Part shown: piece after piece, positions 36,855 through 54,096 of the stretch
How positions within the stretch are numbered: the stretch's first letter is position 1
Layout: every line of letters starts with the position of its first letter
Origin: Thermodesulfobacteriota bacterium
Lineage (GTDB): Bacteria > Desulfobacterota > WTBG01 > CAIYCZ01 > CAIRTM01
Assembly: GCA_028278025.1 (NCBI GenBank)
Contig: JANQFE010000045.1
Span: 658 to 64,657, forward strand
Length of the DNA: 64,000 bases
Reading direction: 5' to 3'
Notes under the pieces: model-generated
What the model was told of the DNA's origin: nothing
Databases searched by the model: none
Seen by the model: the letters and a program-made list of their open reading frames with translations, nothing else
Translations under genes and position numbers: made by a program

Positions 36855-36864
36855 AAAGTAGTCC

Positions 36865-37812: not shown

Positions 37813-37845
37813 TTTGTGAATCAAGCAGTTTGTGAAGCGATTACT

Positions 37846-39891
37846 ATGCAGAAATATGTTATTAAAACAATACTATCTATTTGGTATGCCGCCGCGATGC
37901 TGGCCGGCTCCTCGGCAGCTGCCCAGATGTTTCATGCCGATAAGCCTGACACGGCCAAACGATGTGCTGTTTGCCACTACCAATGGGTATATCCCTTTTA
38001 TGCTGAGCAGCGTGACGGAGAGTTGGCACCGCGCCCACAGGCGAAGGCTGTTGCAAGCCCTGAGATGTGCCTGTCATGTCACGATGGCTCTGTTGCAGAT
38101 TCACGCAAACGGGTTTTTCACAGTCCCGGACATCATACCGGCATTGTGCCGTCGGACAAGGTTTCCATTCCTGAAGAATTTCCTCTTGACGAATCAGGGC
38201 AGATACAATGTGCCACGTGCCATTCCCCGCATGCCCTTCCCAGCGAGACTGATACCGGCTTTGGCCTTTTCTTACGGGCAGAAAACAAAAACTCTCAGTT
38301 CTGCAAGACCTGTCACACGAATAATGAGGGCGGCCCCGCGCAGGGTAATCATGCAATTGACATAAGTGCTACTGCAAAAACTTCGGATATCATTAAGAAC
38401 GGCGGTCGCTTCGGTACGGACCGCGAAAAACAAATTATCTGCGAAACCTGTCACAGTGCTCACGGCGGCTTATCTGAAAAACTGTTAATACTTCCTGTTG
38501 CTGAAAACTCCCGGAGGTCTGCCCTGTGTGAAGCATGTCATTCACAAAATCCGGGCACGGCAAACGGTCAACCCGATCCCGGCGGCAGCCACCCGGTAGG
38601 CACCCTGCCGCAAAAAACAAAAATTCCCTCTCAGTGGTCCAGCGGGGCAAAAATCGTTCTGAACCCTTCCGGTGCCCTACTGTGCAGGACCTGCCACACC
38701 CCTCACGGCGCAGCAGGGCAAAAAGCACTGCTTGTCGACCACAATCATCAGGACTCCCTCTGCATGCAGTGCCATAAAAGTCAAAAAACAATTGTAGGTT
38801 CCAGCCATGATATGAAAATTACGGCGCCGGATGAAAAAAATATCCGTGGACACCGCGCTGCTGAAACAGGCCCATGCAGTTCATGTCATCTTGCACATAA
38901 AAGCAACACCCTCTTGCTATGGGCACGACAACTTCATCCGACATCTCAGAGCACCGTCCTGGAGGAGTTGTGTATCAGCTGTCATGCGCCGGGGCAATGC
39001 GGGGGAAAAGCACTACCGGGTGAGGCATCTCACCCTGTTAATGTACTATTTGAGCCCGACACCCCCCTGCCGTCGTTACCTTTATTTGATACAGATAACA
39101 GGCCAGCACCGCAAGGCACCCTAAGCTGCCTGACCTGTCACCGGGCACATGATCCCGCCCCGCTGTATATGCACGACCCGACCGCACCCGTTAAGCGGGG
39201 GGCATTTCTTAGACTAGCCCGGGCAGGAGTAACAAACCTGTGCATCAGCTGTCATAAACAGCAAGCGTCGATTATCGGCACCGACCATGATTTAACCCTT
39301 TCCGCCCCTGATTTCATCAATGTGTTCGGGCAGAAAGTCGAACAGAAAAATATATGCAGTTCCTGTCACGTTGCTCATAATGCATCACTGGAGAAATACT
39401 TATGGGCCGGGCCGCTGGGCAAAGTCTCCGCTAAAGAAGAGGAAGGCGAGCCAAAAGCTGAAGCAAACAGTATGGAAAGGACGTGCACCGGATGCCATTC
39501 CGGGGGCAATGCTGCGGCAGCTCAGATTCCACGATACGGACAACACCCCCCAGGGGTACAAATCCAGGAGGACTTGTTGAAAGTCGCCCTGGATTCCTCT
39601 GATACCCCGCTCCCGGTTTTTAATGACCAAAACGAAGCACCATCACATACAGGACCTATTATCGTATGCTCAACATGTCACAATCCGCACCAGTGGGACC
39701 CTAAAAAAAACATGCCGGGACCGGGTATCCCAATAGAAGGTGATGCAACCAACAGTTTTTTGCGGCCGGGACTGCCTGTTATGTTTTGTGCAGGCTGCCA
39801 TGGGCAAGAGGCCCTCTTCAAATTCAAATACTTTCACAGTCATATCGGCCGCAAACAAAACAACAATTCTTTCTCTTTTAAAAAGCACTGA
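37846..39891 (+). CDS. 16-heme cytochrome c (doubled-CxxCH type)
   Basis: 16 CxxCH by manual count, SHP motifs, signal peptide from ATG 37846. Confidence 0.9.
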   Translation: MQKYVIKTILSIWYAAAMLAGSSAAAQMFHADKPDTAKRCAVCHYQWVYPFYAEQRDGELAPRPQAKAVASPEMCLSCHDGSVADSRKRVFHSPGHHTGIVPSDKVSIPEEFPLDESGQIQCATCHSPHALPSETDTGFGLFLRAENKNSQFCKTCHTNNEGGPAQGNHAIDISATAKTSDIIKNGGRFGTDREKQIICETCHSAHGGLSEKLLILPVAENSRRSALCEACHSQNPGTANGQPDPGGSHPVGTLPQKTKIPSQWSSGAKIVLNPSGALLCRTCHTPHGAAGQKALLVDHNHQDSLCMQCHKSQKTIVGSSHDMKITAPDEKNIRGHRAAETGPCSSCHLAHKSNTLLLWARQLHPTSQSTVLEELCISCHAPGQCGGKALPGEASHPVNVLFEPDTPLPSLPLFDTDNRPAPQGTLSCLTCHRAHDPAPLYMHDPTAPVKRGAFLRLARAGVTNLCISCHKQQASIIGTDHDLTLSAPDFINVFGQKVEQKNICSSCHVAHNASLEKYLWAGPLGKVSAKEEEGEPKAEANSMERTCTGCHSGGNAAAAQIPRYGQHPPGVQIQEDLLKVALDSSDTPLPVFNDQNEAPSHTGPIIVCSTCHNPHQWDPKKNMPGPGIPIEGDATNSFLRPGLPVMFCAGCHGQEALFKFKYFHSHIGRKQNNNSFSFKKH

Positions 39892-41417
39892 TGTTAAACC
39901 GCAATAATATACATTATTATCTTTATCTAAATCTACTTGGCCTCCTGATAGGCCTCGGCAATGCTGTAGCTGAAACTGAGGAGCCCGTAAACCCTCACTG
40001 GACTGATAAGCACTGCACGGAATGTCATGTCAAAGCAGAAAAGCCGGATTTACTCTTTGAAGGCGACAGTGTACAAATGTGCAATCGCTGCCATGCCGAA
40101 TCTTTTGCCCGCACAGATATTCATCCGGTTGGGGTAAAACCGACTGCAGATATGCAAAAAATCATGCCGGACACCTGGCCGCTGGAAAACGGAGCAATTA
40201 CTTGTATTACCTGCCACGACGTCCTGGTTCAGATGAAAGAAAATGCTGCTCAAAGACTGCTGAATCCCTCGTTCCTGCGGGGTGCCCCGTATGAACAGAT
40301 ATCGTCCTTTTGCTTCTCGTGTCATCAGCAGAATCAGTTTGCAAAAACCAACCCCCACGAGCAGCTGGACGCACAGGGTACCATCATTGCAGGACGCTGC
40401 CTTTTCTGTCACCAGTCGCTGCCGAATCCACAGCAGGCTCAAAGCATCAATGACGTTACGTTTAATAATGGCCGGACTGACATGTGTGTCAATTGTCACA
40501 GCGATAAACAAACTGCCCATCCCGCGCGCGCAGACCATCTGGTGGAACTGTCTGCAGACCGGCTCACGTCTTTGCAGTTTGAGGGCGGCAAGCAAGGCAT
40601 CGAACTGCCGATCTTTCGCGGAAGCGTTGTGTGCGGCACCTGCCACAACCCGCACCAAAAAGGTGTCATGCACCGGCAGGAGATTGGTCACGGCGCCGGC
40701 ACAGAAAATTTTCTTCGTCTTAACGGTGGATATGCATTGTGTGTTTTCTGTCATACGGACATGCGTATAACTGCAAAGCGATCTTTCAGCCGACCGAGTC
40801 GTAATGCGCTGAAAACTGCTCCCGAGGTTATGAGGAATCACAAACCCTGGGCAGAAAACAAATGCAAAATGTGCCACACCATCACACCTAAAAACCGAAC
40901 AAAACCTGCTGCGGTGTTGCTGTGCTTCAAGCAGGGCTGCCATCAAACCGACATGCTTGAAAAAGAATTCGTGCATGCAAAAAGTGTCGGCGAAAACTGC
41001 TATTTTTGCCATGAGTCGCACAACGCCGGCTACAAGAAATTGCTGCGGATAAATGAAAAGCGCCTGTGCTACACCTGCCATCCGTTGATACAAAACGAAA
41101 ACATGAGTGAGTCTGTACAACCGGCGTCAAAATGGCATGATGAGTACTTAGCCTATATACAGACTACCGACATACCGCAGGAGCGGGCCTGTGAATTTTG
41201 CCACAGCAGCAGTCACCAAAAAGAAATAAGCACCATCAAAACCGGCTCGTGTGCTGATTGTCATATTTATGTACGGCAACGCTTAGCTGAAGCGGCTATA
41301 CAGCCGATAAACAGTCACCAGCAGTTTGAAAAACAATCATGCTCTGCATGTCATGACCCGCATGCAGCAGCATATCCGTTTCAACTAAAAAATCCTGTGG
41401 AGACCTATACGCAATGA
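39891..41417 (+). CDS. ~15-heme cytochrome c
   Basis: 14 CxxCH plus CFKQGCH; signal peptide. Confidence 0.9.
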   Translation: MLNRNNIHYYLYLNLLGLLIGLGNAVAETEEPVNPHWTDKHCTECHVKAEKPDLLFEGDSVQMCNRCHAESFARTDIHPVGVKPTADMQKIMPDTWPLENGAITCITCHDVLVQMKENAAQRLLNPSFLRGAPYEQISSFCFSCHQQNQFAKTNPHEQLDAQGTIIAGRCLFCHQSLPNPQQAQSINDVTFNNGRTDMCVNCHSDKQTAHPARADHLVELSADRLTSLQFEGGKQGIELPIFRGSVVCGTCHNPHQKGVMHRQEIGHGAGTENFLRLNGGYALCVFCHTDMRITAKRSFSRPSRNALKTAPEVMRNHKPWAENKCKMCHTITPKNRTKPAAVLLCFKQGCHQTDMLEKEFVHAKSVGENCYFCHESHNAGYKKLLRINEKRLCYTCHPLIQNENMSESVQPASKWHDEYLAYIQTTDIPQERACEFCHSSSHQKEISTIKTGSCADCHIYVRQRLAEAAIQPINSHQQFEKQSCSACHDPHAAAYPFQLKNPVETYTQ

Positions 41418-42352
41418 ACCGTAAGAACCTCTTCAAAGTTTTCAGGGGCGCTGCCCGTATTGTTGCCGTATGTGCTTTAGTCTTACTTCCGGCAGGTTGC
41501 AAAAATGCCCCTGTGCTTCAAAGCACATCCCCAGTGGTGCAGCTCCTTGAGGGCGCGTTCTACACGGGTACAGATTCATGTATCCCCTGCCACGATGATG
41601 TGTACGGTCAATATAAACAAACTATACATTACAGGCTGGCACCTCATGAATTAACAGATGCAACAAGAGGTTGTGAAACATGCCATGGGCCGGGAAGTCT
41701 TCATGTGCAGGCCAAGGGGGGCCTTGATAACATCATCAGCTTTTCAGAGCTTTCAGCCGAAGAGAGTTCAGAAATCTGTCTCTCCTGTCACCGTGGAGAA
41801 CCGATAAGGGACTGGCGTGCCAGTGTGCACATCCTCAACGGCGTCGGCTGTAATGCCTGTCACAAGTCTCATAAAATTACCGCTCCCAAGATGGTGCATC
41901 TGGGAGACCCCGATATCTGCTTTACCTGTCACCAGGGCAAAAAAGCCCAGCATATGCTTCCTTCGCACCATCCGATTAAGGAAAAAAAGATGAAGTGCAG
42001 TGACTGTCATAACAACCATGGTTCCGAGAACAACAACCTGAACAAGCCGACACTGAATGATGTCTGTTTTGAATGCCATGCTGAATACCAGGGCCCGTTT
42101 GTGTATGAGCACAAACCGGTCTTTGAAGACTGTTCCATATGCCATGACCCCCATGGAACAATTGCAAACAACCTGCTGAAACAGAGCCAGCCCTTTCTCT
42201 GTCTGCGTTGTCACCGGGGGCATAAACGCAATCCAAAAATCGGCCCTCATCCAAGTGTTGCGGCTTTTCTGACATCCTGCACCCAGTGTCATGCACAGGT
42301 CCATGGCAGTGATATGCCGTCGCAACTCAATGGAACCGGACTAACCAGGTAG
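41414..42352 (+). CDS. Decaheme cytochrome c lipoprotein, DmsE/MtrA-like
   Basis: 10 CxxCH, GCETCHGPGS.H, SHHPI and GPFVYEH.PV motifs; lipobox LPAGC; upstream of the porin gene. Confidence 0.9.
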   Translation: MNRKNLFKVFRGAARIVAVCALVLLPAGCKNAPVLQSTSPVVQLLEGAFYTGTDSCIPCHDDVYGQYKQTIHYRLAPHELTDATRGCETCHGPGSLHVQAKGGLDNIISFSELSAEESSEICLSCHRGEPIRDWRASVHILNGVGCNACHKSHKITAPKMVHLGDPDICFTCHQGKKAQHMLPSHHPIKEKKMKCSDCHNNHGSENNNLNKPTLNDVCFECHAEYQGPFVYEHKPVFEDCSICHDPHGTIANNLLKQSQPFLCLRCHRGHKRNPKIGPHPSVAAFLTSCTQCHAQVHGSDMPSQLNGTGLTR

Positions 42353-42362
42353 GACGAGATAA

Positions 42363-44204
42363 ATGAGCACGTATAGTCATAAAATCAAAGCTTTCCTTTT
42401 TGCAATTCTGTTTTTTCTTATGCCCCTGACGTCAAGAGCTCAGGAGCAAACTGAACAGCAACCCGATGTGAGCTATACTGCGGAGGCATCAATCGGATAC
42501 CGCCACTATAATGTTAAAGGCTACCGGGGTAAAGTCGGCGAGTATGACACCCTTGACAGCGGGGCCGAAGCCGGCTTTAATCTACAGGGACGTGCCGGTA
42601 GTAAGTATTTCGATTTTACTGGTGAAATATTCGACAAACGCGACCAGTCGTATATGCTTAATGTCGATGTGGACCGCATCACCCAATTTGAGTTCTCCTA
42701 CCGCCGCTTCCGTCACTTTCTGGACAACGATCCGCTCACCAATCAGGACTTTTACACAAACTTTGACGCCGACATGGACAACGGTATAACTCTGGAAGAG
42801 ATAAAGGCATACAACACTGTGCGTATTCCGGCAGTGCCCTTTCTAAAGTTTACCGCTGACTATCGCCGCTACAGCAAACGCGGCCATCGACAGGCAACTA
42901 CGGTAGCGAAATGCTCGCAGTGCCATGTGAGCTCCCGCAATAAAAGAATTAATGCACACACCGATGATGTCACCCTGGGCCTTGAAGGACGTTTTGGACC
43001 TGCAACTATCAGCTATCAGCACCTGTGGCGAAGCTTTAAAGAGGATGGGGCCGCACCCCTAACCAACTATGGCAACGGGGCTCCTTCCTTCAGGGTACGG
43101 GGCCGGGCCCTCTACAGCCGTGTTCCCGACAGTAAAACCCGCATACATAAAATTAATGTTAATTCAAAGCTCCCCTTTGCTTCTGCACTCTTTGCAAGCT
43201 ACCAGTGGGGTGAACGATCAAACAGAGACACCCGCAATGAAATAGATTTTAACAACTTTGCGGCACGCCTTTCAAAAATAATTTCCAGGTATTTTTCTGC
43301 CGATGTATTCTACAGCAGTTACCATATGGACAACAACGCCCCCGACGCGATGGATCGTGATATTGAACGCGGAGGATTTAATATTAAGGCCCGGCCGCTG
43401 AAGCGCACGGGACTTAAGTTCACGTATCAGTGGGAAATGGTTGACAGAAATAATTATACAGAAACATCAACCTATAAAAAGATTTACCGCGTCAGCCTGA
43501 ACCGGAGAGTCTCGCGCAGTTTTCGCCTTCACCTCAGATATCAGAAAACAAAGATTGATGACCCTTTTATTCTTAAGGATAAAACTTTTCGGCGCCTTGT
43601 CCAGACTGCGCTTCCCCGCAATGAAGATGAAATATATGTTGCTGCGAGCTGGAGCCCGCGCCCGAATTTTTCCCTTAATACAAATCTGCTCTATATCAAC
43701 AGCCAACACAGCCACTATGATGTTGATGAAGACCGTTACGAATTCGTCATCAGTCTCTGGTATATGCCGTTTGAACGTATGACCCTTACCGGAACATTCA
43801 CACTCATTGATGCGAAAGTCGATACTCCCGCAACATTCAAGACCTACCATGCACATGGCCTTGATAGTCTTTTTCTGTTTGATGAGGTACCCTATGATGA
43901 TCGCAGCCGGTCATATTACATGGCAGTCAGCTATCAGCTCAATCCGCGTCTTTCTCTCACAGGGGATATAGCCTATACCGCGAGCAATGCTGATTTTGAT
44001 GTTCGGCTTGATTCTCAGAATGTCGGTGATCTATCTGATCTTGATATTGATCAGCTGGAGACATCTCTGGGCATTATCTATCTCTACAACAAGCGTCTGG
44101 TCTTCTATGCAAAGTATATGTATCGCGAATATGACGACCGGGAAGTCTCCGATTTTGATGGGCAATTCAGCCTGATCAGCTTTGGGATGAGCTGGTCTTT
44201 TTAA
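42363..44204 (+). CDS. Outer-membrane beta-barrel (MtrB/PioB-like) containing one CxxCH
   Basis: Signal peptide, amphipathic strands, C-terminal WSF, KCSQCHV motif, follows the decaheme gene. Confidence 0.85.
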   Translation: MSTYSHKIKAFLFAILFFLMPLTSRAQEQTEQQPDVSYTAEASIGYRHYNVKGYRGKVGEYDTLDSGAEAGFNLQGRAGSKYFDFTGEIFDKRDQSYMLNVDVDRITQFEFSYRRFRHFLDNDPLTNQDFYTNFDADMDNGITLEEIKAYNTVRIPAVPFLKFTADYRRYSKRGHRQATTVAKCSQCHVSSRNKRINAHTDDVTLGLEGRFGPATISYQHLWRSFKEDGAAPLTNYGNGAPSFRVRGRALYSRVPDSKTRIHKINVNSKLPFASALFASYQWGERSNRDTRNEIDFNNFAARLSKIISRYFSADVFYSSYHMDNNAPDAMDRDIERGGFNIKARPLKRTGLKFTYQWEMVDRNNYTETSTYKKIYRVSLNRRVSRSFRLHLRYQKTKIDDPFILKDKTFRRLVQTALPRNEDEIYVAASWSPRPNFSLNTNLLYINSQHSHYDVDEDRYEFVISLWYMPFERMTLTGTFTLIDAKVDTPATFKTYHAHGLDSLFLFDEVPYDDRSRSYYMAVSYQLNPRLSLTGDIAYTASNADFDVRLDSQNVGDLSDLDIDQLETSLGIIYLYNKRLVFYAKYMYREYDDREVSDFDGQFSLISFGMSWSF

Positions 44205-44274
44205 AGCAGACACCGTTAGAAGGGCAACCGGCCTAAACAGTTTTCTTATAACGTTTTTTACAGGGGGTAGCACA

Positions 44275-44859
44275 ATGACAAAAAAAATTTTTATGCTTTT
44301 AATTGTCTGGATCATGTGCCCGTCTTTACACGCAGGCGCGCTGCTCGTCGACCTTTCTGAGGAACAGATCAAATCGGCCCTAAGCTTTCATGAAAAACAA
44401 AAAGTAAACCCTGAAATGCTGCTCGCTAAAACCTATACAACAGGCAGTACGGATATGTTTGCCGACCATGTCATTGTCCGTACAAAATGGTATAAACTTG
44501 CCCATATCGCCAACATAAAAGCATCCCAGGGGCTGGAATTCCCCGTAAAAGAGCAGGCCCATATCCTTGATGATCCGTCACTTCAAATTGATATAATCGT
44601 GTATGGTTACACAATAGATTTTGCCGGCAATTATACCGTCATGATGACTCAGGGCAGCTGCATGATAGCGCCTGAAAAACTGCACGCCGACCATTTCGAC
44701 TATAAAAAAAAGTCCTTAAAGGGCTTCCCCACCTATCGGGCTACTATCCGGGCCTATTTCAGTTACAGCCGGTTTGATCCCACGGGAAAAGCAACCCTGG
44801 TGCTGAAAAAGGATGGTGCCGAAAAAAAATTTACAATTGATTTTAGTCAGTTTAATTGA
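44275..44859 (+). CDS. Exported hypothetical protein (paralog of 60729..61340)
   Basis: Signal peptide; shared RTKW.KLA, LQID...YG.TIDFA and GFP.YRAT motifs. Confidence 0.8.
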   Translation: MTKKIFMLLIVWIMCPSLHAGALLVDLSEEQIKSALSFHEKQKVNPEMLLAKTYTTGSTDMFADHVIVRTKWYKLAHIANIKASQGLEFPVKEQAHILDDPSLQIDIIVYGYTIDFAGNYTVMMTQGSCMIAPEKLHADHFDYKKKSLKGFPTYRATIRAYFSYSRFDPTGKATLVLKKDGAEKKFTIDFSQFN

Positions 44860-45028
44860 ACTACCACCCCGCTCCAGCGGGGTGGATTGGTTCCCGACTA
44901 AAGCCGGCTAAAGTAAAAACAACATACCTTTGAAATTCTCACGAGGGGTATCTTTTTTCATAGCACCTTCGGTGCTTACTCAAGTCTTCGCCTACAGGCG
45001 AGGGTTTTGCTCCCCGAGTGCGACAATA
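44859..45028. mobile_element. Non-autonomous IS200/IS605-like remnant (ends only)
   Basis: Subterminal hairpins CCACCCCGCTCCAGCGGGGTGG and TCGCCTACAGGCGA with no transposase between them. Confidence 0.55.
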
Positions 45029-45093
45029 GTTCCCGGCGATAGTGCATTTTCCTGACGGCACAGGCCCTCGCGACGGTTCTGCCGCCCATTGCC

Positions 45094-45247
45094 TTAACAA
45101 CATATGTTAACAATGTTAACGATTATGGTTAACATGTTAACCAAACCTTAACTTCCCCCAAAATGCCGCTCCTATTGGGTAAAAATATAAAGCTATTATA
45201 ATGGCTTATATTTTTATTCAACGCTTCATTCTGGCACAAAAAATGTA
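45094..45247 (+). promoter_or_regulatory. TTAAC repeat array plus possible sigma54 promoter upstream of the Sec-cytochrome gene
   Basis: Six TTAAC in 45094-45152; TGGCACAAAAAATGTA at 45232. Confidence 0.45.
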
Positions 45248-45304
45248 ATATAATACCAGTGTAAACACCTATATCATTAATGCCGTAATAAACAGGTAGT
45301 AAAC

Positions 45305-46699
45305 ATGTACTATACACAGCCGATTCATATTTACTCCCGGGGGCATCGTGTGCTGTTCATAGCACTGATACTGCTGTTGGCAAGCTGCGATGAATACGGT
45401 CTGTTGCAAAATGCGACAGAAGGTACCGATCAATGTGTTTCCTGCCACACGGATAAGGATTTGTTAAAAGAAATTGCCGACCCCATAGAGCACAGTGAAG
45501 GCAGCGGTGAAGGCTGAGGCGGCTCTGTGACTCCGTTGGAGCCATGGAAAAGAGTCTTTGTGAGTGAAGAGTATCTGGAAACAGCCCACGGAAAGATGAG
45601 CTGCACCTGGTGTCATAACGGCAATCCGCAAAGCCCTGACAAGGAAGAGGGGCATAAAGGAATAATTGCATATCCCAGTGAAGACGCAGATTTTTACTGC
45701 GGCCCCTGTCATGCAGAGGAAGTAAAAAATAATAAAATCAGTATCCACACAACCCAGGAAGGCTATTTTGAGCGTTTCAGAATACGTGCCGGTTATGACT
45801 GGCGCGATCCGGGGCGTGAGCATGAGCTGGAAGAGTTTAAAGCTGAATGCGGGGTCTGTCATGCCACCTGCGGGCAATGCCACATAAGCAGGCCCAGAAC
45901 AGTCGGCGGCGGTTTTAACTGGGCCCATGAATTCAAAAAAACTCCTGATCTGCAGACCAACTGCACTGCCTGCCACGGCTCTCGCATAGGAGAGGAATAC
46001 ACCGGGGCTCATGAAGGGTTTAAAGCTGACGTGCACTATATCCCTCATGTCAAGAATTGCGAGTATTGTCATCCCGCCCATCAAATGCATGGCGGTGACG
46101 GTAAAAAGCTGACCTATCGTTATGATGAGCATAATACCGCGGCAATTCGCTGCGAAGACTGTCATGACGATACGATCGAAAGCAACCAGTATCACCTCAT
46201 GCACTGGGCCGGCGAGGCCGGTGTGGTACATTCCTGTGAGGTGTGCCACTCACAGCCCTATAAAAACTGTAACGGCTGCCATGCCGGTGGTGGTATTACC
46301 GGGTCATCCTACCTCTCGTTTGAAATCGGCCGCAACTATCTTAAAGATAATAGACGTTATAAAGACTATGATTATATTACCGTACGCCATATTCCCATAG
46401 CACCCAATACTTATGAAGAGTGGGGCATTGAGGATTTGAAATATTTTGAATTTTCAGAACCCACCTGGAAGTTTACCAGGCCGCATAACACCCTGCTGTG
46501 GACCCCCCAGACTGAGGTTGCAGAGGGACAATCATGCAATGCCAACTGCCATGACAGTGCCTACTTGCTGCGTCCGGAGGATATTGAATATTATGAAGAT
46601 GCCAACTACAAGGAAGAAAACGGTGAGTTCGGCTATGGCTTTGATGACCTTGAACGGGAACGTCTGGCAAATAAAGATGTGATTATTCCATATAAATGA
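45305..46699 (+). CDS. Probable selenocysteine-containing multiheme cytochrome c lipoprotein (464 aa, Sec71)
   Basis: ORFs 45305..45517 and 45527..46699 share a frame and are joined by TGA GGC GGC TCT. The lipobox LLASC and first CxxCH are upstream of the TGA. 10 CxxCH plus CX3CH in total; a SECIS-like hairpin follows the TGA. Confidence 0.8.
45518..45548 (+). promoter_or_regulatory. Bacterial SECIS-like stem-loop
   Basis: CTGTG(A)CTCC-GTT-GGAG(C)CATGG hairpin; the apical loop starts with GU, 18 nt after the UGA. Confidence 0.7.
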
Positions 46700-46900
46700 T
46701 TGCTGTGGAAAGGAGGTGAACCGTATTAGAGTAACATTTCTGTTCAGGAGACTGCACCAGTTATACTGCAGCCCCCTGAACACTGCTCTGTTTTCTGTTG
46801 TTTTGGGTCGATAATCCCAAAATGACTCAGCATGTTTGCTATACGTACTCTTTAAGACAGAAACCTGAAAAATACTTATTTTGTTGGAGGATGAAACATC

Positions 46901-47905
46901 ATGAAACATAAAAACTTTTTTTTAACGGTTTGCCTGCTGGGTGCCCTTGCCGTAATGTGTGGCTGTGTTCAGCCACCGGAAGAAATAGACGAATTTGCAA
47001 TACTGGCTGCGGCCGGTGATGCCTATTTCACCAACTATACAACACCGTCAACTGGTGTAAGCCCCAACATTGCCATCGCTGATCTTTTTCAATTACTGAA
47101 TGACGGTGATGAAAGCAATGACCCTTATCTTATCGACTGGCGCTCTGCTGAAGACTTTGCGGCCGGCCATATACAGGGTGCTGTTAACATTGCATTGGGA
47201 GACCTTGGTTCTAAGATTAATGAGCTCCCTACTGATCAGATGATTGTTAATGTCTGCTATACCGGTCAGACAGCCAGCTTTGCAACCGCTGTTATAAACC
47301 TGGTCGGTCAGCAGGACGAGTTTGCAGGACTGGAAGCCCGCAATCTGAAATTCGGCATGTGCTCGGTAACAAACGATACCTCTATTGTTCCTAAAACCGA
47401 TAAGTGGGTAAACGCGGTCGCCGAAGATGAATTCACCGACAGCCTGGAACAGACCGCCAATACGACCGATACTGAATATGAATTTCCGGCAATCAGCAGC
47501 GACGAAACAACCCTGGCCGGTATTATTGCCGCCCAGGTTGATGATGCGGTTTCTGATTGGAGCATAGATGCCGCCACCGTATTTGCCAACACTGATGACT
47601 ATTTCATCATCAACTACTGGCCTGAAGATCAGTACCTTGACCCGGGCCATATCCCCGGAGCTTATCAGTTCAGTCCCAAAGGGTCGTTGGCAACAGATGC
47701 CGATTTGAACCTGCTGCCCACGGACCAGACGATCGTGGTGTACTGCTATACCGGTCAGACTTCCGCCCAGGTTGCACCTTATCTGAGGATGCTGGGCTAT
47801 GATGCCAAAAGCCTGCTGTTTGGTGTTAACGGCTTTGCATTTGAGGTCTGCCCGGGAACTACGTATCATGGACCGGAAAATGATTATACCAGCATACTAG
47901 AATAA
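46901..47905 (+). CDS. Tandem rhodanese-domain lipoprotein (sulfur/selenium transferase)
   Basis: Lipobox MCGC; two domains with GHIQGA and GHIPGA and active loops CYTGQTA and CYTGQTS. Confidence 0.88.
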   Translation: MKHKNFFLTVCLLGALAVMCGCVQPPEEIDEFAILAAAGDAYFTNYTTPSTGVSPNIAIADLFQLLNDGDESNDPYLIDWRSAEDFAAGHIQGAVNIALGDLGSKINELPTDQMIVNVCYTGQTASFATAVINLVGQQDEFAGLEARNLKFGMCSVTNDTSIVPKTDKWVNAVAEDEFTDSLEQTANTTDTEYEFPAISSDETTLAGIIAAQVDDAVSDWSIDAATVFANTDDYFIINYWPEDQYLDPGHIPGAYQFSPKGSLATDADLNLLPTDQTIVVYCYTGQTSAQVAPYLRMLGYDAKSLLFGVNGFAFEVCPGTTYHGPENDYTSILE

Positions 47906-48036
47906 ACTGTTGAACTATTAGCCCCTCAATGTTCCCCTCGCCGGGCTGCAGATTTTTTACAGCCCCCTTTTACTGCAGCCCGGCATATCCTCTAAAACAA
48001 TAACTACTGCACCCCTGAGCAGTGCTGTGGGACCGG

Positions 48037-48262
48037 CTAGCCCGCATTATTCATCAGCATGTAGTGAGCGCACTATCCCTGGTGTTTACTACAAAAAAAC
48101 CTTCCGGCACGCCTGCAGCCGGTGGCATCGGATGGGGCTGCAAAGGCGGTGCGAGCGATGTCTGGTAATCAAGAAAACAGCTGTTTTTGCGAGCACATAG
48201 CCTGAAGCACGCAGTCCGATGCCGCAGGCTGGCCGCTAATAGTCATCAATAATGCGGGCTAG
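48037..48262. mobile_element. MITE-like element (226 bp)
   Basis: Terminal inverted repeats CTAGCCCGCATTATT...AATAATGCGGGCTAG; internal palindromic core related to the elements at 52231 and 61458. Confidence 0.65.
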
Positions 48263-48278
48263 TACTTTTGGACAAACT

Positions 48279-48312
48279 AAAAAGGCAGATCTTTTTAAGA
48301 CCTGCCTTTTTA
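48279..48312. terminator. Bidirectional rho-independent terminator between convergent operons
   Basis: AAAAAGGCAG...CTGCCTTTTT. Confidence 0.7.
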
Positions 48313-48331
48313 ATTTTTTTAAAAACTCTTG

Positions 48332-49297
48332 TTATCTTTTTAAGGCCAGGACCTTCACTCGGTCGGCCAGCATCTCTACTACATATAATCTGTTCTTATG
48401 CACGAAGAGACCGGTCGGTGATTTGAATTTCATGATAGTGCCCTGGCTGTCACCAACAACCGACAGAAACGTTCCCCTTTTATCAAACACCTGGACAACC
48501 CCCAGGTAGCTGTCACTTACATACACCCGGCCCTGGGCGTCGACTGCAATACCTTTCGGGCGGTACAACTCACCCTTCTCTACTCCCCACCGGCCGATAT
48601 TGGCAAGATAGGCGCCTTCAGGGTCCAGCACCTTAATACGGGTATTGATTACTTCCACAATATAGATATTTCCGTCCTGATCAATATCGGCAAGGAATGG
48701 AAAACGAAATTCTTTCCGTTCCATGCCCATAATACCGTGTACCCGGAGGATTTCCTGCTTTACAAGATCATAGATAAGCACGCAGTGGTTATCGTTATCC
48801 ACAACGTAACATTTCTGCTGAGAGCTGTTTACAACCACATCGGTCGGGTCGGAAGGCTTAAACCCTTTCCGGCCGGTGTCGGTTGAAAACTGGGACAGGT
48901 AGGTTCCCTCAGGGCTGAACACCTGCACCCGGTGATTGCCCGAATCAGCCACGTATATTCGACCCTCCGCATCAATACCGATACCCAGGGGTGCTTTTAG
49001 TTTGCCGCGGCCCTGGCCGGCACCTCCAAATGAGGAAAGATACTTGCCACTGCTGCTGAAGACTTTAACCCTGTTATTAACCCCGTCCAGCACATATATT
49101 CTGCCGTTTTTTCCGACAACGACATCACTGGGCTTGTCAAAGTCGGCTGTAAGGGTAAAAAGACTTTTGACCGGCAGGACAGGAACTGCATACTCCTGCC
49201 CATATGATACCGGAACATACATCAGTACCATGCCGATAGTTATAAACCGAAATATGTTTTTGAAAAAACTCAATACAACCTCCGTAAATATTGTCAC
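48332..49297 (-). CDS. NHL-repeat beta-propeller protein (module 2)
   Basis: Paralog of 36865..37812; shared CYVVDNDNH, WGV..G..YRPKG and SDSYLGV. Confidence 0.9.
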   Translation of the reverse strand: MTIFTEVVLSFFKNIFRFITIGMVLMYVPVSYGQEYAVPVLPVKSLFTLTADFDKPSDVVVGKNGRIYVLDGVNNRVKVFSSSGKYLSSFGGAGQGRGKLKAPLGIGIDAEGRIYVADSGNHRVQVFSPEGTYLSQFSTDTGRKGFKPSDPTDVVVNSSQQKCYVVDNDNHCVLIYDLVKQEILRVHGIMGMERKEFRFPFLADIDQDGNIYIVEVINTRIKVLDPEGAYLANIGRWGVEKGELYRPKGIAVDAQGRVYVSDSYLGVVQVFDKRGTFLSVVGDSQGTIMKFKSPTGLFVHKNRLYVVEMLADRVKVLALKR

Positions 49298-49419
49298 CAG
49301 TCAGTTGAATGTTGTCAGTAGTATAATCAGTAACGAGCAATGAGTGCTGAGTAACGAGTATCCCCCTTAACAGCTTTTTCAGCATTTACTGTTTACGGTT
49401 CACGGTTTACTGTTTTGCT

Positions 49420-50199
49420 TCAGTCGTTTTTTCTGCCTGCTTTGCTCGGATCAAACATAGTAGGTAGATAAAATTCCTTATACTCATCGATTAGCTGCAT
49501 GATCTCCAGGCGTACCAGCCTGTTGATGTAGTTCTGTGTATATCCCAGAGATGCAAGGTCGATATACCCGTCCTGCTGATGACATTCCTTGCATGTTACG
49601 GCTTCTTCGGAAATATGGGCCATAAGCTCTTCCTGGATTTTTTTCTTCTCGGCTTCACTATAGCCGGCCTCATTGGCCATGTATTCACGCGCTAAAGCTT
49701 CCTTGGGAAATACATCCAGCCGTTTGCCGTCTTTTACTGCTACAATTTTAGCCCCGTAGCTGCCCTGCTGTCCGACGATTTGGGTAACCTGCTGCCCGCT
49801 TTTGTTATCAAACCATTTAAAACTGATGGCTTCACCTTCTTTCTTTCTGATGTGACAGGTCTCGCAGGCTACATAAAAAGTGTGCATGTTATAAAACGAC
49901 CGGAGCTCCTTTGACTCAGTATGGCAGAAGTTGCCATGACATTGCAAACACAGGGGAGCATTATCGGCATCACTGTATACTTCTTCATCAAGTATGTGAA
50001 AATGTTCATTGGCCCTGACAGGGTGAACAATTGTTTTAGTAAACTTATTGACCGGTTGCTCCTCAGGGACTGCCGTCGGCTTTGCGGGGAAATAGAGAAA
50101 TTTCAAAAGCAGGAACACACAGATGGCCGTCACAACTGCAAAAACCACCCCTAAGAAATTACCGATTAATCTCAGGAAAATATTTGTTGATCTACTCAT
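49420..50199 (-). CDS. Membrane-anchored triheme cytochrome c
   Basis: N-terminal TM segment; CLQCH, CETCH, CKECH; matches the C-terminal half of 35193..36854 (RSF.NMH..Y.AC.TCH). Confidence 0.85.
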   Translation of the reverse strand: MSRSTNIFLRLIGNFLGVVFAVVTAICVFLLLKFLYFPAKPTAVPEEQPVNKFTKTIVHPVRANEHFHILDEEVYSDADNAPLCLQCHGNFCHTESKELRSFYNMHTFYVACETCHIRKKEGEAISFKWFDNKSGQQVTQIVGQQGSYGAKIVAVKDGKRLDVFPKEALAREYMANEAGYSEAEKKKIQEELMAHISEEAVTCKECHQQDGYIDLASLGYTQNYINRLVRLEIMQLIDEYKEFYLPTMFDPSKAGRKND

Positions 50200-50218
50200 A
50201 TCTGATTCCTCAAAATAT

Positions 50219-50923
50219 TTATGCCTTGGAGGCGGCCGAAGCCTCTTCAGCCTGTTTTATACGCTGATACTGCAAAGGATGTTCTTCCTCGAGTTCATGT
50301 TCGGGTATTTTACCGTTCAGGAAAATTTTGGACATCGGAAACTTGCCCGGTTTCAGGTGCACCTCGTAAAAATGCCACACCATTATGGCACACGATGCCA
50401 GGATAGCCTCCATGGTATGCACCAGAATAGAAACATCAAAAAAGAATTTGGGAAACAGGTGCTCCAGCCACAGCACAAACCCGGTCAGGGTAATAATAAT
50501 ATTACCGATCCAGCCGGTCCAGTATTCCATTTTCTCTTTATAGTTAAAACGGTCAAATTGCGGCTTGTCTTTGGAGATCCTTAGATAATAAAGCATATTA
50601 AACAGCATGTCCTTGGCATCCTGGAGTGTGGGCAGCATGTCCATAAAGTAACTGCGTCCATCCCTGGTAAACGCAAGATACCACGTCTGATAAAACAGGT
50701 TTGCTATCATAACAACTGCAGCAATCCGGTGCAGCAGGCCCCGCCAGTAAAAAACAGGTTCCCTGTATTGTCCGAAAACGGCAATCCACTCCTCAGGAAA
50801 CTCCACCATGAAACCGGTAACGGCCAGGGTAATAAAGGTAGACCAGACAAGATGGTGCTGAATTCTTTCATGTATGGTCATGCGAATATAGTGTTTTTCT
50901 TCAGCATGATTGGAACGCGCCAT
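50219..50923 (-). CDS. Cytochrome b (FdnI-type) membrane subunit
   Basis: RIQH, LHR, RFNYKEKMEYW and VHTMEA..A...WHFY motifs. Confidence 0.88.
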   Translation of the reverse strand: MARSNHAEEKHYIRMTIHERIQHHLVWSTFITLAVTGFMVEFPEEWIAVFGQYREPVFYWRGLLHRIAAVVMIANLFYQTWYLAFTRDGRSYFMDMLPTLQDAKDMLFNMLYYLRISKDKPQFDRFNYKEKMEYWTGWIGNIIITLTGFVLWLEHLFPKFFFDVSILVHTMEAILASCAIMVWHFYEVHLKPGKFPMSKIFLNGKIPEHELEEEHPLQYQRIKQAEEASAASKA

Positions 50924-52101
50924 CAGTGGTGACCCCCTTTCTTCATTTCTCTTCTGGTTGCAAAGAAGTCCAGAATTTGATGAATTATCATAAAAGAGAT
51001 AAGTCCGGCGATAAGTATTTTATAAAAGTATTTTATAAGCAAAAGAATAAGACTTTGATAGTATTCCAGGGTGGTCATATCTTCCTGGGCCCGTTCCTGC
51101 ATAAGGGATTTGAAAGGCCTGGCTTCTCCCTTCTTGATCAGTTCCTTCACCTCAAAGGTATCCAGCTTGGTATCAAAAACTTTGGCCTTGGCCCCGGACG
51201 GGTGGATTTTTCCCTGGGCGAATGCCGCTGTAGCATCCGGGTGGCACTGCTGCAGGCCGTTTATGTTGCTGCAGGTCTGCACCAGGTTATCCTGGTGGAT
51301 TGCAGAACCGGGATCTGTTTTCGGTTTGATTTCATGGGCAAGGTAACCGACCGGTGCATGGCAGTCTATACAGTTAGGGGCATTGGGATCATTATACTTT
51401 ATAGACTGCCAGTGAAACGTGTCACGGTAGGTGCCGGTGGCTTCCAATCCGTGCCTGCTCATCTTTTCCTGGTCTTCATGGCATGAAGCACACAGCGTTA
51501 CGGTGTCGTATGATGATCGGCGCTCTTTCATCCGGTGAGTCACATGGCTGTAAAACGTCTGGGCCCAGCGCTCATCCTCATGGCATGCCAAACAGCGGTC
51601 AAGGAGCTCACAGGCAATAGTATTCGGTTTGCCCGGTTCGCACAGCAACGGCTCAAAAATCCGGTTAGCGTGGCAATAGGTGCAGCCGGGCAGATCATCG
51701 GCATTATCTTTAAGCTTTTCGCCGTCATATTTGCTGTGAACACTTTGTTCATATTTTTCAACATCCTTGGCGTGTGAGAATTTTTTTTCAACCGAAGGCT
51801 CAACTATATGACATTCGGTAGCACAATCAACTTTCTCCAAATCAACATGGGGAAACTTTTCAACATTGACATGACAGCCTTTGCATTTAACCCGGGCATG
51901 GACCGAGTGTGCATATAAATCTTCATTCACGTAAAAGAGCCGCTTCTTGCCGTCGTCATCTATCCTGCCGAGTCCACTGTATTTGTGACATAAAGCGCAG
52001 TTCTCTACATCGGCAGCCCGTACCTCCGGGGGGGCCTGCAGCCACAGTGTCATTGACACTAAAATGACAAAAGTCCTTATTAAGAGAGTTTGCGGTTTCA
52101 T
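50923..52101 (-). CDS. Membrane-anchored multiheme cytochrome c (Cbc-like c subunit, module 2)
   Basis: 6 CxxCH plus CX3CH and CX8CH, C-terminal TM segment; paralog of 34090..35196. Confidence 0.85.
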   Translation of the reverse strand: MKPQTLLIRTFVILVSMTLWLQAPPEVRAADVENCALCHKYSGLGRIDDDGKKRLFYVNEDLYAHSVHARVKCKGCHVNVEKFPHVDLEKVDCATECHIVEPSVEKKFSHAKDVEKYEQSVHSKYDGEKLKDNADDLPGCTYCHANRIFEPLLCEPGKPNTIACELLDRCLACHEDERWAQTFYSHVTHRMKERRSSYDTVTLCASCHEDQEKMSRHGLEATGTYRDTFHWQSIKYNDPNAPNCIDCHAPVGYLAHEIKPKTDPGSAIHQDNLVQTCSNINGLQQCHPDATAAFAQGKIHPSGAKAKVFDTKLDTFEVKELIKKGEARPFKSLMQERAQEDMTTLEYYQSLILLLIKYFYKILIAGLISFMIIHQILDFFATRREMKKGGHH

Positions 52102-52230
52102 AAATTCTCCCTTGCATATGATAGAAATAATATTTCTAGGTCCAATGTGTATAAACCCTGCATTCTATTTAAATGATGCTGGTTGCTTGCTCCTTGATAC
52201 CGGATAAGAAAACAACTATCATCCAGCATT

Positions 52231-52419
52231 TAGTACAGCGTCACATGTGAATTTGTCTGTTCATCGGTGAGGGTCTTTGGTTTTTGGGCCGCCAGGGCGC
52301 TGCGAGCACTTGCCTATACTATAAGAGACGGTCATTCAAGCGAGCACATAGCCCGCTGCATTCAAAATCAAAGACCCTCGCTAAATCATACCCACACATT
52401 CAAATGTGGTGCTGTACTA
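52231..52419. mobile_element. MITE-like element, copy 1 (~190 bp)
   Basis: TIRs TAGTACAGCGTCACA...TGTGGTGCTGTACTA; near-full-length homolog at 61458..61645. Confidence 0.75.
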
Positions 52420-52437
52420 GTATCCAGAAGCCGGCAA

Positions 52438-54021
52438 CTATTTATACGACTCCGGTTCCTCCCTCAGCAAAAATTCATACGGTGCGCTGTGAGGATTGTG
52501 ACACACCGTGCAGTTGTTACCTGCAAACCGCGGCAGATTTTCGTGAATATTCTCTGTTCCTCCTCGCTCATCCTTCACCAGCTGCTCGATATAATTATGG
52601 CACTGATAGCAGACAATAATGCCCTTTTCCTTTACGAGCCCGCTATGGTCTTCTCCGTGACAATACCCGCAGGTCAGCTCCTGTTCAGGAACCGTTTCTT
52701 GAAACAGCCCGTAGTAGTAATCATGCAGATCCTGTTTCTGCTGCTGAGCTTCATCCTCCTCAATCGGCGGCAAGAGCGGATGGCAGGCCCTGCAGAGTTT
52801 CTGTTGGTCATTTACAATATGGGCACCAAACTGGCTGCCATGTTGACTGTGACACAAAAGACAGTTTCCTTCAGCAGCATCCTTATGGGTAAACCGTGCT
52901 CCCAGAAGGGCGGGGGTATCATGACAGTCCGACACAAAACACATTTTAAAGACATTGGGCACACCGGGTTCTTCCCTGGTTACTGCGTGACAGGCCCGGC
53001 ATTTTTTTTCCAGAAATGCTTTATGATACGAGGGTATACCCTCTCCCTTGGTAACCGGGATTAGATCCGTTCGCTGAATTTCTTCCAGGGGAATATCCCT
53101 GGCACTGACCTCCTCCTTATCGCTGTGGCAGGCAACACACATATCCTTGGAGCGGTCAAGCCGCAGTTTATACTCTGCCTCTGCGCCCTTTGCAGCCGCT
53201 TCCCGTTGTATAATACCCTTGTCATGAGGATTGTGGCAGGTTCCACAAAACACATGTTCCTCAAACAACGGCAGGATGACATTATATTTTTCTTCGGATG
53301 CCTCAATTGCCGCAAGCATTTCCTCGGAAGGTTTGTGCATGTGATTTGCTTTGGCCGGATGCAGGGTTTCCTCCTCGCCATGACACGCAGCACAAAAGGT
53401 TGACTGTTTGGTTTTGAAATTGACTCCGGTAATATCTGTGACTGCATCAGGATCAGGCAGCGATTCGTGACAGTACAGGCACTGTTTTTCATCAACGTTA
53501 CCCTCATCGTCAACCTGTTCATGCGGATTAGTCTTGGCATACACATCCCGGTTATGACAGCGAAAACAAAATTCGGTTACCTTTTTGTAAGGTGCCCCCC
53601 ATAGAAAATTAATATTTTCAAACTGCGCTGCAGGCTCTGCCTGGCATTGCAGGTATACATCATGACAGGTCCTGCAGGTAACCTTACCGTCATACAGGGG
53701 AAGCTCTTTAGGAATTGTTACAGCTTCCCCCACTGAGGGAGCAATCCCGACCGGGTGGAGCTCACCTTTGACATTCTCCTTTTCATGGCATGAATTGCAC
53801 ATGGCTATATCATCACCGCCAAACTTGAGCTTCAGATTTTTGTCACCCGGCTGCGGTGCCGACACGTGACATTCTTCGCAATGCTTTCCGGTGAAGTGCG
53901 GATTAATAACTTCCTCCTCATCCTTTGCCTGGACAAAAGCAGGACACAACAAAAGGCAAAACGCAAAGATAATCATGTTCCTTATCACTGTATTTATATG
54001 TACTGCTTTCGTCCTCATCAC
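52438..54021 (-). CDS. ~15-heme cytochrome c (module 2)
   Basis: 14 CxxCH plus CFVSDCH; paralog of 39891..41417. Confidence 0.9.
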   Translation of the reverse strand: MMRTKAVHINTVIRNMIIFAFCLLLCPAFVQAKDEEEVINPHFTGKHCEECHVSAPQPGDKNLKLKFGGDDIAMCNSCHEKENVKGELHPVGIAPSVGEAVTIPKELPLYDGKVTCRTCHDVYLQCQAEPAAQFENINFLWGAPYKKVTEFCFRCHNRDVYAKTNPHEQVDDEGNVDEKQCLYCHESLPDPDAVTDITGVNFKTKQSTFCAACHGEEETLHPAKANHMHKPSEEMLAAIEASEEKYNVILPLFEEHVFCGTCHNPHDKGIIQREAAAKGAEAEYKLRLDRSKDMCVACHSDKEEVSARDIPLEEIQRTDLIPVTKGEGIPSYHKAFLEKKCRACHAVTREEPGVPNVFKMCFVSDCHDTPALLGARFTHKDAAEGNCLLCHSQHGSQFGAHIVNDQQKLCRACHPLLPPIEEDEAQQQKQDLHDYYYGLFQETVPEQELTCGYCHGEDHSGLVKEKGIIVCYQCHNYIEQLVKDERGGTENIHENLPRFAGNNCTVCHNPHSAPYEFLLREEPESYK

Positions 54022-54095
54022 TCGTTACTCATTGCTCATTACTTATTATTTGTTACTCAGCACTCATCACTCATTGCTCATTACTCATCATCACT
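54022..54095. repeat. Degenerate heptamer tandem repeat (TTACTCA/TTGCTCA-like)
   Basis: About 10 units with 7-nt periodicity filling the intergenic gap. Confidence 0.7.
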
Positions 54096-54096
54096 T

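Follow-up and report, generated by a model that had tools for sequence, protein, structure and literature searches.

Does the TGA codon between two neighbouring open reading frames (ORFs) end a gene, or does it encode selenocysteine (Sec, U) within a single, larger cytochrome, and what would such a protein do beside a rhodanese? The locus that raises this question lies in a 64,000-nt stretch of DNA, here called the window, from a Thermodesulfobacteriota bacterium (NCBI GenBank assembly GCA_028278025.1, contig JANQFE010000045.1, positions 658 to 64,657 of the forward strand; coordinates given without a contig or locus handle are those of the window). An earlier note on this DNA had read the two ORFs as a hidden Sec-containing multiheme cytochrome paired with a double-rhodanese lipoprotein. 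The analysis described here indicates that the two ORFs are almost certainly one gene, with the UGA decoded as Sec to give a single protein. The predicted product is a lipid-anchored eleven-heme cytochrome c that has Sec71 near its N-terminus in a conserved GEG-U-GG motif.

Two annotated ORFs form one frame bridged by a TGA

By ORF listing and translation, the ORFs at 45305-45517 (70 aa) and 45527-46699 (390 aa) were found to lie in the same frame, bridged by a single TGA at 45515-45517, just as the earlier note had described. When this TGA is read as U, the frame stays open from 45305 to a terminal stop, also a TGA, at 46697-46699 and specifies a 464-aa product in which U is residue 71 (...HSEGSGEG-U-GGSVTPLEPW...). 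The part of the frame upstream of the codon holds a signal sequence, a lipobox (LLLAS-C28) and the first CxxCH motif (C44-H48). The downstream ORF, which under translation table 11 starts with the GTG at 45527, has no signal peptide of its own; this distribution of the lipoprotein signal and the first heme motif, also claimed earlier, was evident in the translation. The expectation that annotation pipelines split the gene was borne out by the 120 best database homologs, which are only 346-429 aa long and span just 74-89% of the joined cytochrome.

An alternative is that the TGA is a true stop, either created by a nonsense mutation or lying between two genes, and that the 70-aa and 390-aa ORFs are independent or dead. 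Gene calling with table 11 indeed yields two ORFs. However, the downstream part has no export signal, yet c-type hemes require export.

The TGA is conserved in relatives from many phyla

A six-frame search of 61 related genomes gave nine matches in eight genomes, each with one in-frame TGA; the nine include a second copy in the same genome (contig C22, 63% identity), and one match (L016) also extends into the terminal TAG of its gene. The motif GEG-U-GGSVxPLEPW surrounds the TGA in eight of the nine, the ninth having GGG-U-AGAPPP. A species-level scan, for which one genome per species was used, gave 581 confirmed stretches, and the locus counts below refer to the best 80 of these 581. At the Sec site, TGA is present in 77 of the 80 loci, where it lies in the same GEG-U-GG motif and which exceeds what chance would give, a Cys codon in two (TGC in L035 and TGT in L036) and CGG in one (L045). 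The residues C44, C47, H48, L54, G68, G70, G72 and G73, which flank the site, each reach a conservation of 95% or more across 83 aligned sequences. Two findings argue against a true stop: the TGA keeps its position in 77 of 80 loci across many phyla, with coding on either side conserved in one frame, and the Cys-form homologs are single polypeptides. A role for TGA as a general sense codon was ruled out because TGA also terminates this gene and about 20 homologs.

A HMMER search of 1.84 billion cluster representatives returned 1683 clusters at E <= 0.001, 636 at E <= 1e-10 and 203 at E <= 1e-30. Among the best 150 clusters, 106 do not reach the Sec site, many beginning just past it in a gene-caller-like manner, and 44 span it. 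Cys occupies the site in 17 of these 44, several with the motif G-x-G-C-G-G. Homologs with a conserved TGA and homologs with Cys at residue 71, the two forms that the earlier note had suggested looking for, were therefore both found. When residues 40-125 served as query in a word-based search, the downstream ORF of the window was the sole hit among 11 candidates, a result with little bearing on Cys forms.

Other sequences weigh against Sec as a constant property of the family. The remaining 27 of the 44 site-spanning clusters have neither Sec nor Cys (W in five, Y in four, A in four, L, G, H, V, P and S in two each, M and R in one each), and a close relative, L045:5111 (Bacterium BMS3Bbin03 record), has Arg (CGG) in the motif GEI-R-GG. 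The five clusters with Trp may owe this residue to a source pipeline that read TGA with table 4. Because of these 27 representatives and L045, we suggest that the cytochrome fold can work without a chalcogen, perhaps as a plain electron carrier. The earlier note had regarded Trp, Arg or Gly at this position in homologs as a sign of a nonsense mutation or sequencing error. Among the best 80 loci there is the single Arg; in the wider set of 44 clusters all three residues occur. L045 is the sole close relative with Arg at the Sec site; there is no rhodanese in its 12-kb locus, and its genome has selA.

A covarying hairpin follows the UGA

The earlier note had placed a hairpin with a GU-initiated apical loop 18 nt past the UGA, as in a bacterial selenocysteine insertion sequence (SECIS). 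This hairpin is the minimum-energy fold of the region (Table 1); its GUU loop lies 18 nt after the UGA, and helix and loop together occupy the positions 11-27 nt after it. Two results weigh against its being a Sec signal and fit a true stop instead. The window hairpin is thermodynamically unremarkable, being no more stable than shuffled sequences (z -0.24; 84 of 200 shuffles fold as well), and a search of 45300-45800 against Rfam in evalue mode gave no SECIS family at the hairpin, only chance-level snoRNA and RNase P matches.

Covariation was examined in 80 distinct 45-nt stretches that run from the TGA onward and align without gaps. The apical loop is GUU in most of them. The helix columns (14-20 with 24-30) pair in 78.9% of cells, compared with 44-50% when the 3´ arm is slid by one to three columns. 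All seven pairs are changed on both sides, which agrees with the hairpin proposed earlier, and the covariation score of 0.295 (0.114 when shuffled) was reached by none of 500 shuffles. Column 15, a synonymous third position in a Val codon, covaries with column 29, which sets the encoded residue (P, A, G or V); this covariation is therefore hard to explain without selection on the RNA. We accept the hairpin as real because of covariation, not stability.

Many cells of the helix are unpaired because a subset of loci uses a shifted hairpin. This variant, seen by eye in the alignment, has the consensus CCCCGCUGGAAGCGUGGG with a UGGAA loop and replaces the GUU-loop form in mostly Phycisphaerae-type loci (L054, L058, L065, L072, L075, L076, L081, L082, L086, L090, L091, L097 and L100).

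The genome encodes the selenocysteine machinery

The presence of selA, selB, selC and selD had been named in the earlier note as a check on Sec decoding. In the genome that contains the window, we detected selA (610 bits, cut-off 268), selB (375 bits, cut-off 242), selD (242 and 157 bits on two contig ends, cut-off 125) and one tRNA-Sec (ARAGORN). The two selD pieces lie at C33:4-369 and C91:28978-29631. Because the N-terminal piece has an in-frame TGA, SelD of this genome is probably itself a selenoprotein. selA was also above the cut-off in all seven further TGA-form genomes tested, in one of two Cys-form genomes and in the Arg-form genome. We also noted that in another genome of the same phylum (G042, contig C83:4149-5501 and 7134-8183; L021) selA lies ~1.6 kb upstream of a distant homolog of the Sec cytochrome.

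Against a true stop, then, stand a hairpin that covaries and a genome with the full Sec machinery, in addition to the conserved codon. We consider a true stop extremely improbable and close to refuted, and the structure of the Sec cytochrome gene is settled as far as sequence analysis allows.

The product is a predicted eleven-heme lipoprotein

The joined cytochrome has ten CxxCH motifs and one CxxxCH motif (C411-H416), eleven in total, in agreement with the approximate heme number given in the earlier note; each motif is kept in 79-83 of the 83 full-length members that were aligned. Ten additional His residues (H95, H117, H148, H208, H244, H262, H297, H300, H362 and H394) are invariant or nearly so in the same members. 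There are thus eleven heme motifs but ten conserved candidate distal His residues, and Sec71 is the only other invariant residue capable of serving as a ligand. The lipobox Cys28, which is kept in 78 of the 83, is the only conserved Cys outside the heme motifs, and four Arg residues (R161, R227, R272 and R361) are conserved across the alignment.

The protein has few matches among known families. Pfam detected Cytochrome_C7 (30.1 bits, cut-off 24.8) and, below the cut-off of 30, MtrC/MtrF domain II/IV (26 bits). No NCBIfam family matched the joined cytochrome at E <= 0.01, no relative was found in the PDB by phmmer (sequence) or Foldseek (fold), and for the downstream ORF the clusters retrieved from the protein Atlas bore no name more specific than 'multiheme c-type cytochrome'. 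AlphaFold2, supplied with a 30-sequence alignment, produced a model without hemes that has a mean pLDDT of 74.1 and a pTM of 0.72. In this heme-free model U71 is predicted to sit at the turn of a short beta-hairpin (strands at residues 68-70 and 73-75, pLDDT about 67-74), a placement that speaks against the flexible Gly-rich arm imagined in the earlier note.

The second copy of the Sec cytochrome in the same genome (G000, contig C22:19490-20758; L022; L103:7485-8850, minus strand) is 63% identical and has the same TGA and hairpin.

A double-rhodanese lipoprotein accompanies the cytochrome

The earlier note had described the next gene as a lipoprotein with two rhodanese domains, each with a CYTGQT loop, and this description holds: PF00581 matches in two stretches and both loops are seen (Table 1). 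By tblastn, 73 of the 80 best loci have a rhodanese homolog adjoining the cytochrome gene, mostly directly downstream and, in some Calditrichia, upstream. Of the seven loci in which none was found, three end within ~240 nt of the cytochrome (L066, L069 and L100) and one is the Arg-form locus L045. The partner rhodaneses, also lipoproteins, have a length of about 325-360 aa and CYTG[QH]T loops; those of Chloroflexota are 4-6 domain forms with CGSG[HW]R loops. The catalytic residues C119 and C282 are invariant in all 33 aligned partners, and in two of ten long relatives examined (P0145 and P0173) the cytochrome is fused to two rhodanese domains. The pairing of the two proteins claimed earlier is thus a property of the family, and functional coupling of the Sec cytochrome to the rhodanese is very likely.

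In the two Cys-form loci (L035:7244-7411 and L036:3352-3876) the rhodanese ORF is short (56 and 175 aa, respectively); the gene may be broken, the contig faulty or the short length an artefact of the start-codon rule.

The pair resembles known systems in composition, not in descent

The earlier note had compared the pair with ExtKL and ExtH of Geobacter. ExtKL (GSU2937-2936) of Geobacter sulfurreducens is MccSep, a periplasmic, tetrameric, pentaheme selenoprotein that was described in August 2026, mainly for Desulfobacterota and Nitrospirota, as the first Sec-heme polysulfide reductase; its Sec325 neighbours a Cys-ligated heme, and it is a polysulfide reductase needed for S0 respiration that also reduces selenite, a poorer substrate (PMC13510729). 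In the ext cluster, ExtH is a rhodanese lipoprotein, ExtI is porin-like and ExtJ is a small protein, and deletion of ExtI impairs selenite and tellurite reduction (PMC6148476). Both MccSep and the window cytochrome are c-type multiheme proteins with one Sec specified by an in-frame UGA and a following hairpin, and both genes are split by gene callers. Each has a rhodanese-family lipoprotein, a porin-like protein and a small protein encoded alongside it, and Sec and Cys forms interchange in both (PMC13510729; PMC6148476). The differences are considerable, as MccSep has five hemes, compared with eleven in the window cytochrome, and is a soluble periplasmic tetramer, whereas the window cytochrome is a predicted lipoprotein. 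In addition, Sec325 of MccSep lies in a C-terminal Ig-like domain in the motif PDGUPTP, whereas Sec71 lies in GEG-U-GG.

The joined cytochrome did not match the ExtKL family NF040886 (cut-off 250 bits), and hhalign of the cytochrome alignment against four true ExtKL proteins gave a probability of 47.7% over 42 columns around one CxxCH. Among 201 same-phylum genomes scanned, NF040886 was above the cut-off in 22, and in none from the family of the window's genome or in that genome itself. Kinship of the neighbouring genes with the ext cluster was rejected as well: compared with a Geobacter-like extHIJKL locus, the window rhodanese, porin and 194-aa protein reached best E values of 0.14, 1.1 and 4.2, respectively. 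Because neither the cytochrome nor its partner proteins show significant similarity, the two systems are alike in composition, not in descent, and the comparison drawn in the earlier note is retained as an analogy and given up as a kinship. The cytochrome is the founder of a large family distinct from ExtKL/MccSep.

A second comparison is with MtrCAB. The window has a GSU2203/DmsE-type decaheme cytochrome, an MtrB/PioB-like barrel and, in the place of MtrC, a lipoprotein multiheme cytochrome, the last of which weakly matches MtrC/MtrF domain II/IV as described above. It differs from MtrCAB in that the lipoprotein cytochrome has Sec and a rhodanese partner and in that the barrel itself carries a CxxCH (GSU2204 family). 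The three parts of a possible Mtr-type conduit are encoded together here, with the barrel below its NCBIfam cut-off (310 against 350), and the arrangement recurs in only one of 80 other loci.

In Wolinella succinogenes, the exported or periplasmic rhodanese-type protein Sud brings polysulfide sulfur to a respiratory reductase, Psr, which is a molybdoenzyme. The likeness to the window pair is one of description only: the idea of a sulfur carrier is the same, with a molybdoenzyme there and a heme/Sec enzyme here.

In its main-text table, a May 2026 review of selenoproteins gives as cytochrome-type families ExtKL (NF040886), GSU2204 (NF041027) and an octaheme family (TIGR04315) (PMC13188914, main text). 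The GSU2204 and octaheme tetrathionate reductase families share with the window cytochrome that they bind heme c and include Sec forms, but neither of the two models detected it. A member of the GSU2204 family, in its Cys form, sits two genes upstream of the Sec cytochrome. TsdA and SoxAX, which have His/Cys-ligated hemes, perform sulfur chemistry at a heme with a chalcogen distal ligand (PMC13510729), and the window cytochrome may resemble them, given that one of its hemes lacks a conserved distal His. Those enzymes differ in having Cys rather than Sec and two hemes, and no sequence relation to them was detected.

Full-text literature searches returned no description of a Sec eleven-heme family, which the supplements of PMC13510729, PMC13188914 and PMC12013277 could list; the main text of the deep-Sep paper does not mention cytochrome, heme or rhodanese. 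The Sec eleven-heme cytochrome family is real, widespread and apparently not yet described.

The neighbourhood has the make-up of a respiratory terminal module

The Sec cytochrome and the rhodanese close a same-strand gene run of the window, the features of which are collected in Table 1.

Table 1. Positions of the Sec cytochrome, its parts and the genes of the same run in the window.
Feature	Position	Strand	Evidence
Upstream run: multiheme cytochrome, cytochrome b-multiheme fusion (35193-36854), NHL propeller, two large multiheme cytochromes	34090-41417	+	Pfam, NCBIfam
GSU2203-family (DmsE/MtrA-like) decaheme cytochrome	41414-42352	+	NF041028 340.1 bits, above cut-off 325; TIGR03508 257.3 bits
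MtrB/PioB-like outer-membrane beta-barrel with one CxxCH, GSU2204 family	42363-44204	+	NF041027 310.3 bits, below cut-off 350; Pfam MtrB_PioB 36.8, above cut-off 23
194-aa secreted protein between barrel and Sec cytochrome	44275-44859	+	No Pfam or NCBIfam match; homolog in 1 of 80 other loci
Predicted Sec multiheme lipoprotein cytochrome c gene, 464 aa	45305-46699	+	Read-through frame; relatives align across the TGA in one frame (9/9 and 80/80)
Signal peptide and lipobox L-A-S-C; Cys28 (45386-45388) predicted lipidated	45305-45388	+	Read off translation; Cys in 78 of 83 members
Span of 11 heme motifs, C44xxCH (45434-45448) to C411xxxCH (46535-46552)	45434-46552	+	Each motif kept in 79-83 of 83
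Predicted UGA codon for Sec, U71, motif GEG-U-GG	45515-45517	+	Codon conservation, Sec machinery
SECIS-like hairpin; helix 45528-45534 / 45538-45544, apical loop GUU 45535-45537	45524-45548	+	Minimum-energy fold, covariation
Double-rhodanese lipoprotein, 334 aa, lipobox Cys22; CYTGQT loops at Cys119 (47255-47257) and Cys282 (47744-47746)	46901-47905	+	PF00581 79.4 bits, two stretches

The cytochrome run is headed by an FGE-sulfatase-domain protein (33214-34050) that scores below the threshold for EgtB and for the selenoneine synthase SenA (125 bits against 420). The heme motif of the barrel is KCSQCH, and within the GSU2204 '(seleno)protein' family the barrel is of the Cys form. A second set of cytochrome b, multiheme and NHL genes is found on the opposite strand (48332-56688), and paralogous modules of cytochrome b, multiheme cytochrome and NHL propeller flank the Sec pair on both sides (35193-37812 on the plus strand and 48332-50923 on the minus strand). 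Between the 194-aa gene and the Sec cytochrome lies a gap of 445 nt (44860-45304) in which no convincing ORF was seen. A scan of 44200-48400 for promoters and terminators gave nothing decisive beyond one weak promoter-like site at 45107-45135, and because the gap holds this site, the Sec-rhodanese pair may form its own transcription unit. Among sequencing runs, no RNA run was listed as containing the sequence; one DNA run contains a share of 0.99 of its sampled words and may be where the assembly comes from.

Clustering of the ORFs around 81 loci identified multiheme cytochromes (36 of 81), a sigma-54 activator (29) and a hexaheme cytochrome (17) as recurrent neighbours. Cytochrome b is near the Sec cytochrome in 19 of 80 loci, and 4Fe-4S and NrfD proteins are neighbours in the Chloroflexota loci. 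This composition is that of a respiratory terminal module. We also noted a ~400-aa protein encoded after the rhodanese (L030:8586-9785 and homologs, in 26 of 81 loci from many phyla) that belongs to no Pfam or NCBIfam family. Its nearest Atlas cluster carries the automatic name 'Porin family protein', which we take as a lead only; as a putative barrel it was tried and rejected as a relative of ExtI (E 0.31).

Sulfur reduction is the favoured function

The best explanation that we can offer is that the pair constitutes a Sec-dependent sulfane-sulfur or polysulfide reductase fed by the rhodanese and by a heme chain, and we consider it reasonably probable; that the chemistry is reductive and acts on sulfane sulfur or polysulfide has, in our estimate, about an even chance. 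In the proposed mechanism, the rhodanese would take up sulfane sulfur, derived from polysulfide or S0, as a cysteine persulfide and would pass the sulfur to the Sec71 selenolate. Electrons from the heme chain would then reduce the Se-S bond so formed, with release of sulfide. In the genome studied here, the electrons could come from quinol through cytochrome b and multiheme proteins and through the GSU2203/GSU2204 porin-cytochrome pair encoded just upstream, with the Sec cytochrome acting as a terminal, possibly surface-exposed, sulfur reductase. In addition, Sec71 might serve the heme that has no conserved distal His, either as its distal axial ligand or as a directly adjacent residue that carries the persulfide, which would make a natural His/Sec centre; we regard this as a tentative and rather unlikely extension.

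Several points weigh against a surface sulfur reductase of this kind. Sequence does not reveal whether the reaction runs as a reduction or an oxidation. A porin is adjacent in only one of 80 other loci by tblastn, a search of limited reach, and because of this a surface location is not general. The residue at position +2 after the lipobox Cys is Asp, which favours inner-membrane retention in E. coli, a rule that is not necessarily valid here. The second copy in the genome has no rhodanese nearby, its neighbours being a class-V aminotransferase (cysteine-desulfurase-like), a metallo-beta-lactamase-fold protein and a DUF1847 protein. MccSep has a conserved heme-ligating Cys239 for which the 83-sequence alignment of the window cytochrome offers no counterpart, and because the two enzymes are not homologous, the functional analogy may not carry over.

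The same components could run in the oxidative direction: the rhodanese would present sulfide, thiosulfate or sulfane sulfur for oxidation at the Sec/heme site, and the heme chain would pass the electrons on to quinone or an external acceptor, in the manner of TsdA and SoxAX. Multiheme chains are reversible, and by the labels of the submitters the family is present in many lineages that are not sulfur reducers, for example Gemmatimonadota, Phycisphaerae and Anaerolineae. The authors of the MccSep study also note a relation to the reverse of the TsdA/SoxAX reaction (PMC13510729). However, among Sec multiheme enzymes with a rhodanese neighbour only one has been characterised, and it is a reductase; the neighbouring modules of the quinol-dehydrogenase type (cytochrome b, NrfCD) suit both directions, with nothing that favours oxidation. 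We therefore view oxidation as an unlikely, minority reading.

A different substrate was also considered, namely selenite, tellurite or a similar chalcogen oxyanion, reduced for respiration or detoxification, with the rhodanese handling the selenium product. MccSep reduces selenite, and loss of ExtI impairs selenite and tellurite reduction (PMC13510729; PMC6148476); the conserved R161, R227, R272 and R361 could bind an oxyanion. Selenite is, however, a poorer substrate of MccSep, and the spread of the family over hundreds of species genomes in many phyla (581 stretches) is easier to reconcile with a plentiful substrate such as sulfur than with one present in traces, which makes oxyanion reduction quite improbable as the main function.

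Finally, Sec71 might be merely an axial heme ligand or a residue that tunes redox properties, in a protein that passes electrons to minerals or partner cells next to a rhodanese that serves another purpose. Such a role would fit the eleven hemes with only ten conserved extra His, the many distant relatives that have neither Sec nor Cys and the extracellular-electron-transfer type of gene cluster in the window. Against it, the near-universal adjacency of the rhodanese, its two invariant catalytic Cys residues and the fused forms argue for shared sulfur chemistry, and the cost of Sec is usually paid for catalysis. A purely electronic role is, in our judgement, very doubtful, slightly more so than oxyanion reduction. 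Reduction of sulfane sulfur or polysulfide by the Sec cytochrome thus stays the favoured reading, and the function of the Sec cytochrome-rhodanese pair is a well-motivated hypothesis.

Distribution and significance

The labels given by submitters place family members in Calditrichota, KSB1, Marinimicrobia, Gemmatimonadota, Eisenbacteria, Krumholzibacteriota, Phycisphaerae, Chloroflexota and Ignavibacteria. The family is a second kind of Sec multiheme cytochrome, unrelated to MccSep and tied to rhodanese sulfur chemistry. Nearly all of its database entries are truncated at the Sec codon, and no NCBIfam model covers it; because of this, the heme count, the export signal and the catalytic residue are missed in metabolic reconstructions.

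To our knowledge, the enzyme that reduces elemental sulfur or polysulfide has long been unclear in many anaerobes. If the function proposed here is correct, lipid-anchored and possibly cell-surface terminal enzymes fed directly by a rhodanese would exist in a dozen or more phyla, invisible to current annotation, and if the His/Sec heme centre is also correct, they would form a second class of selenium-heme sulfur reductases, with an evolutionary origin of its own. The family would then be a testable case of convergent selenium-heme chemistry, and the supply of selenium would affect the sulfur cycle of sediments much more broadly than has been assumed.

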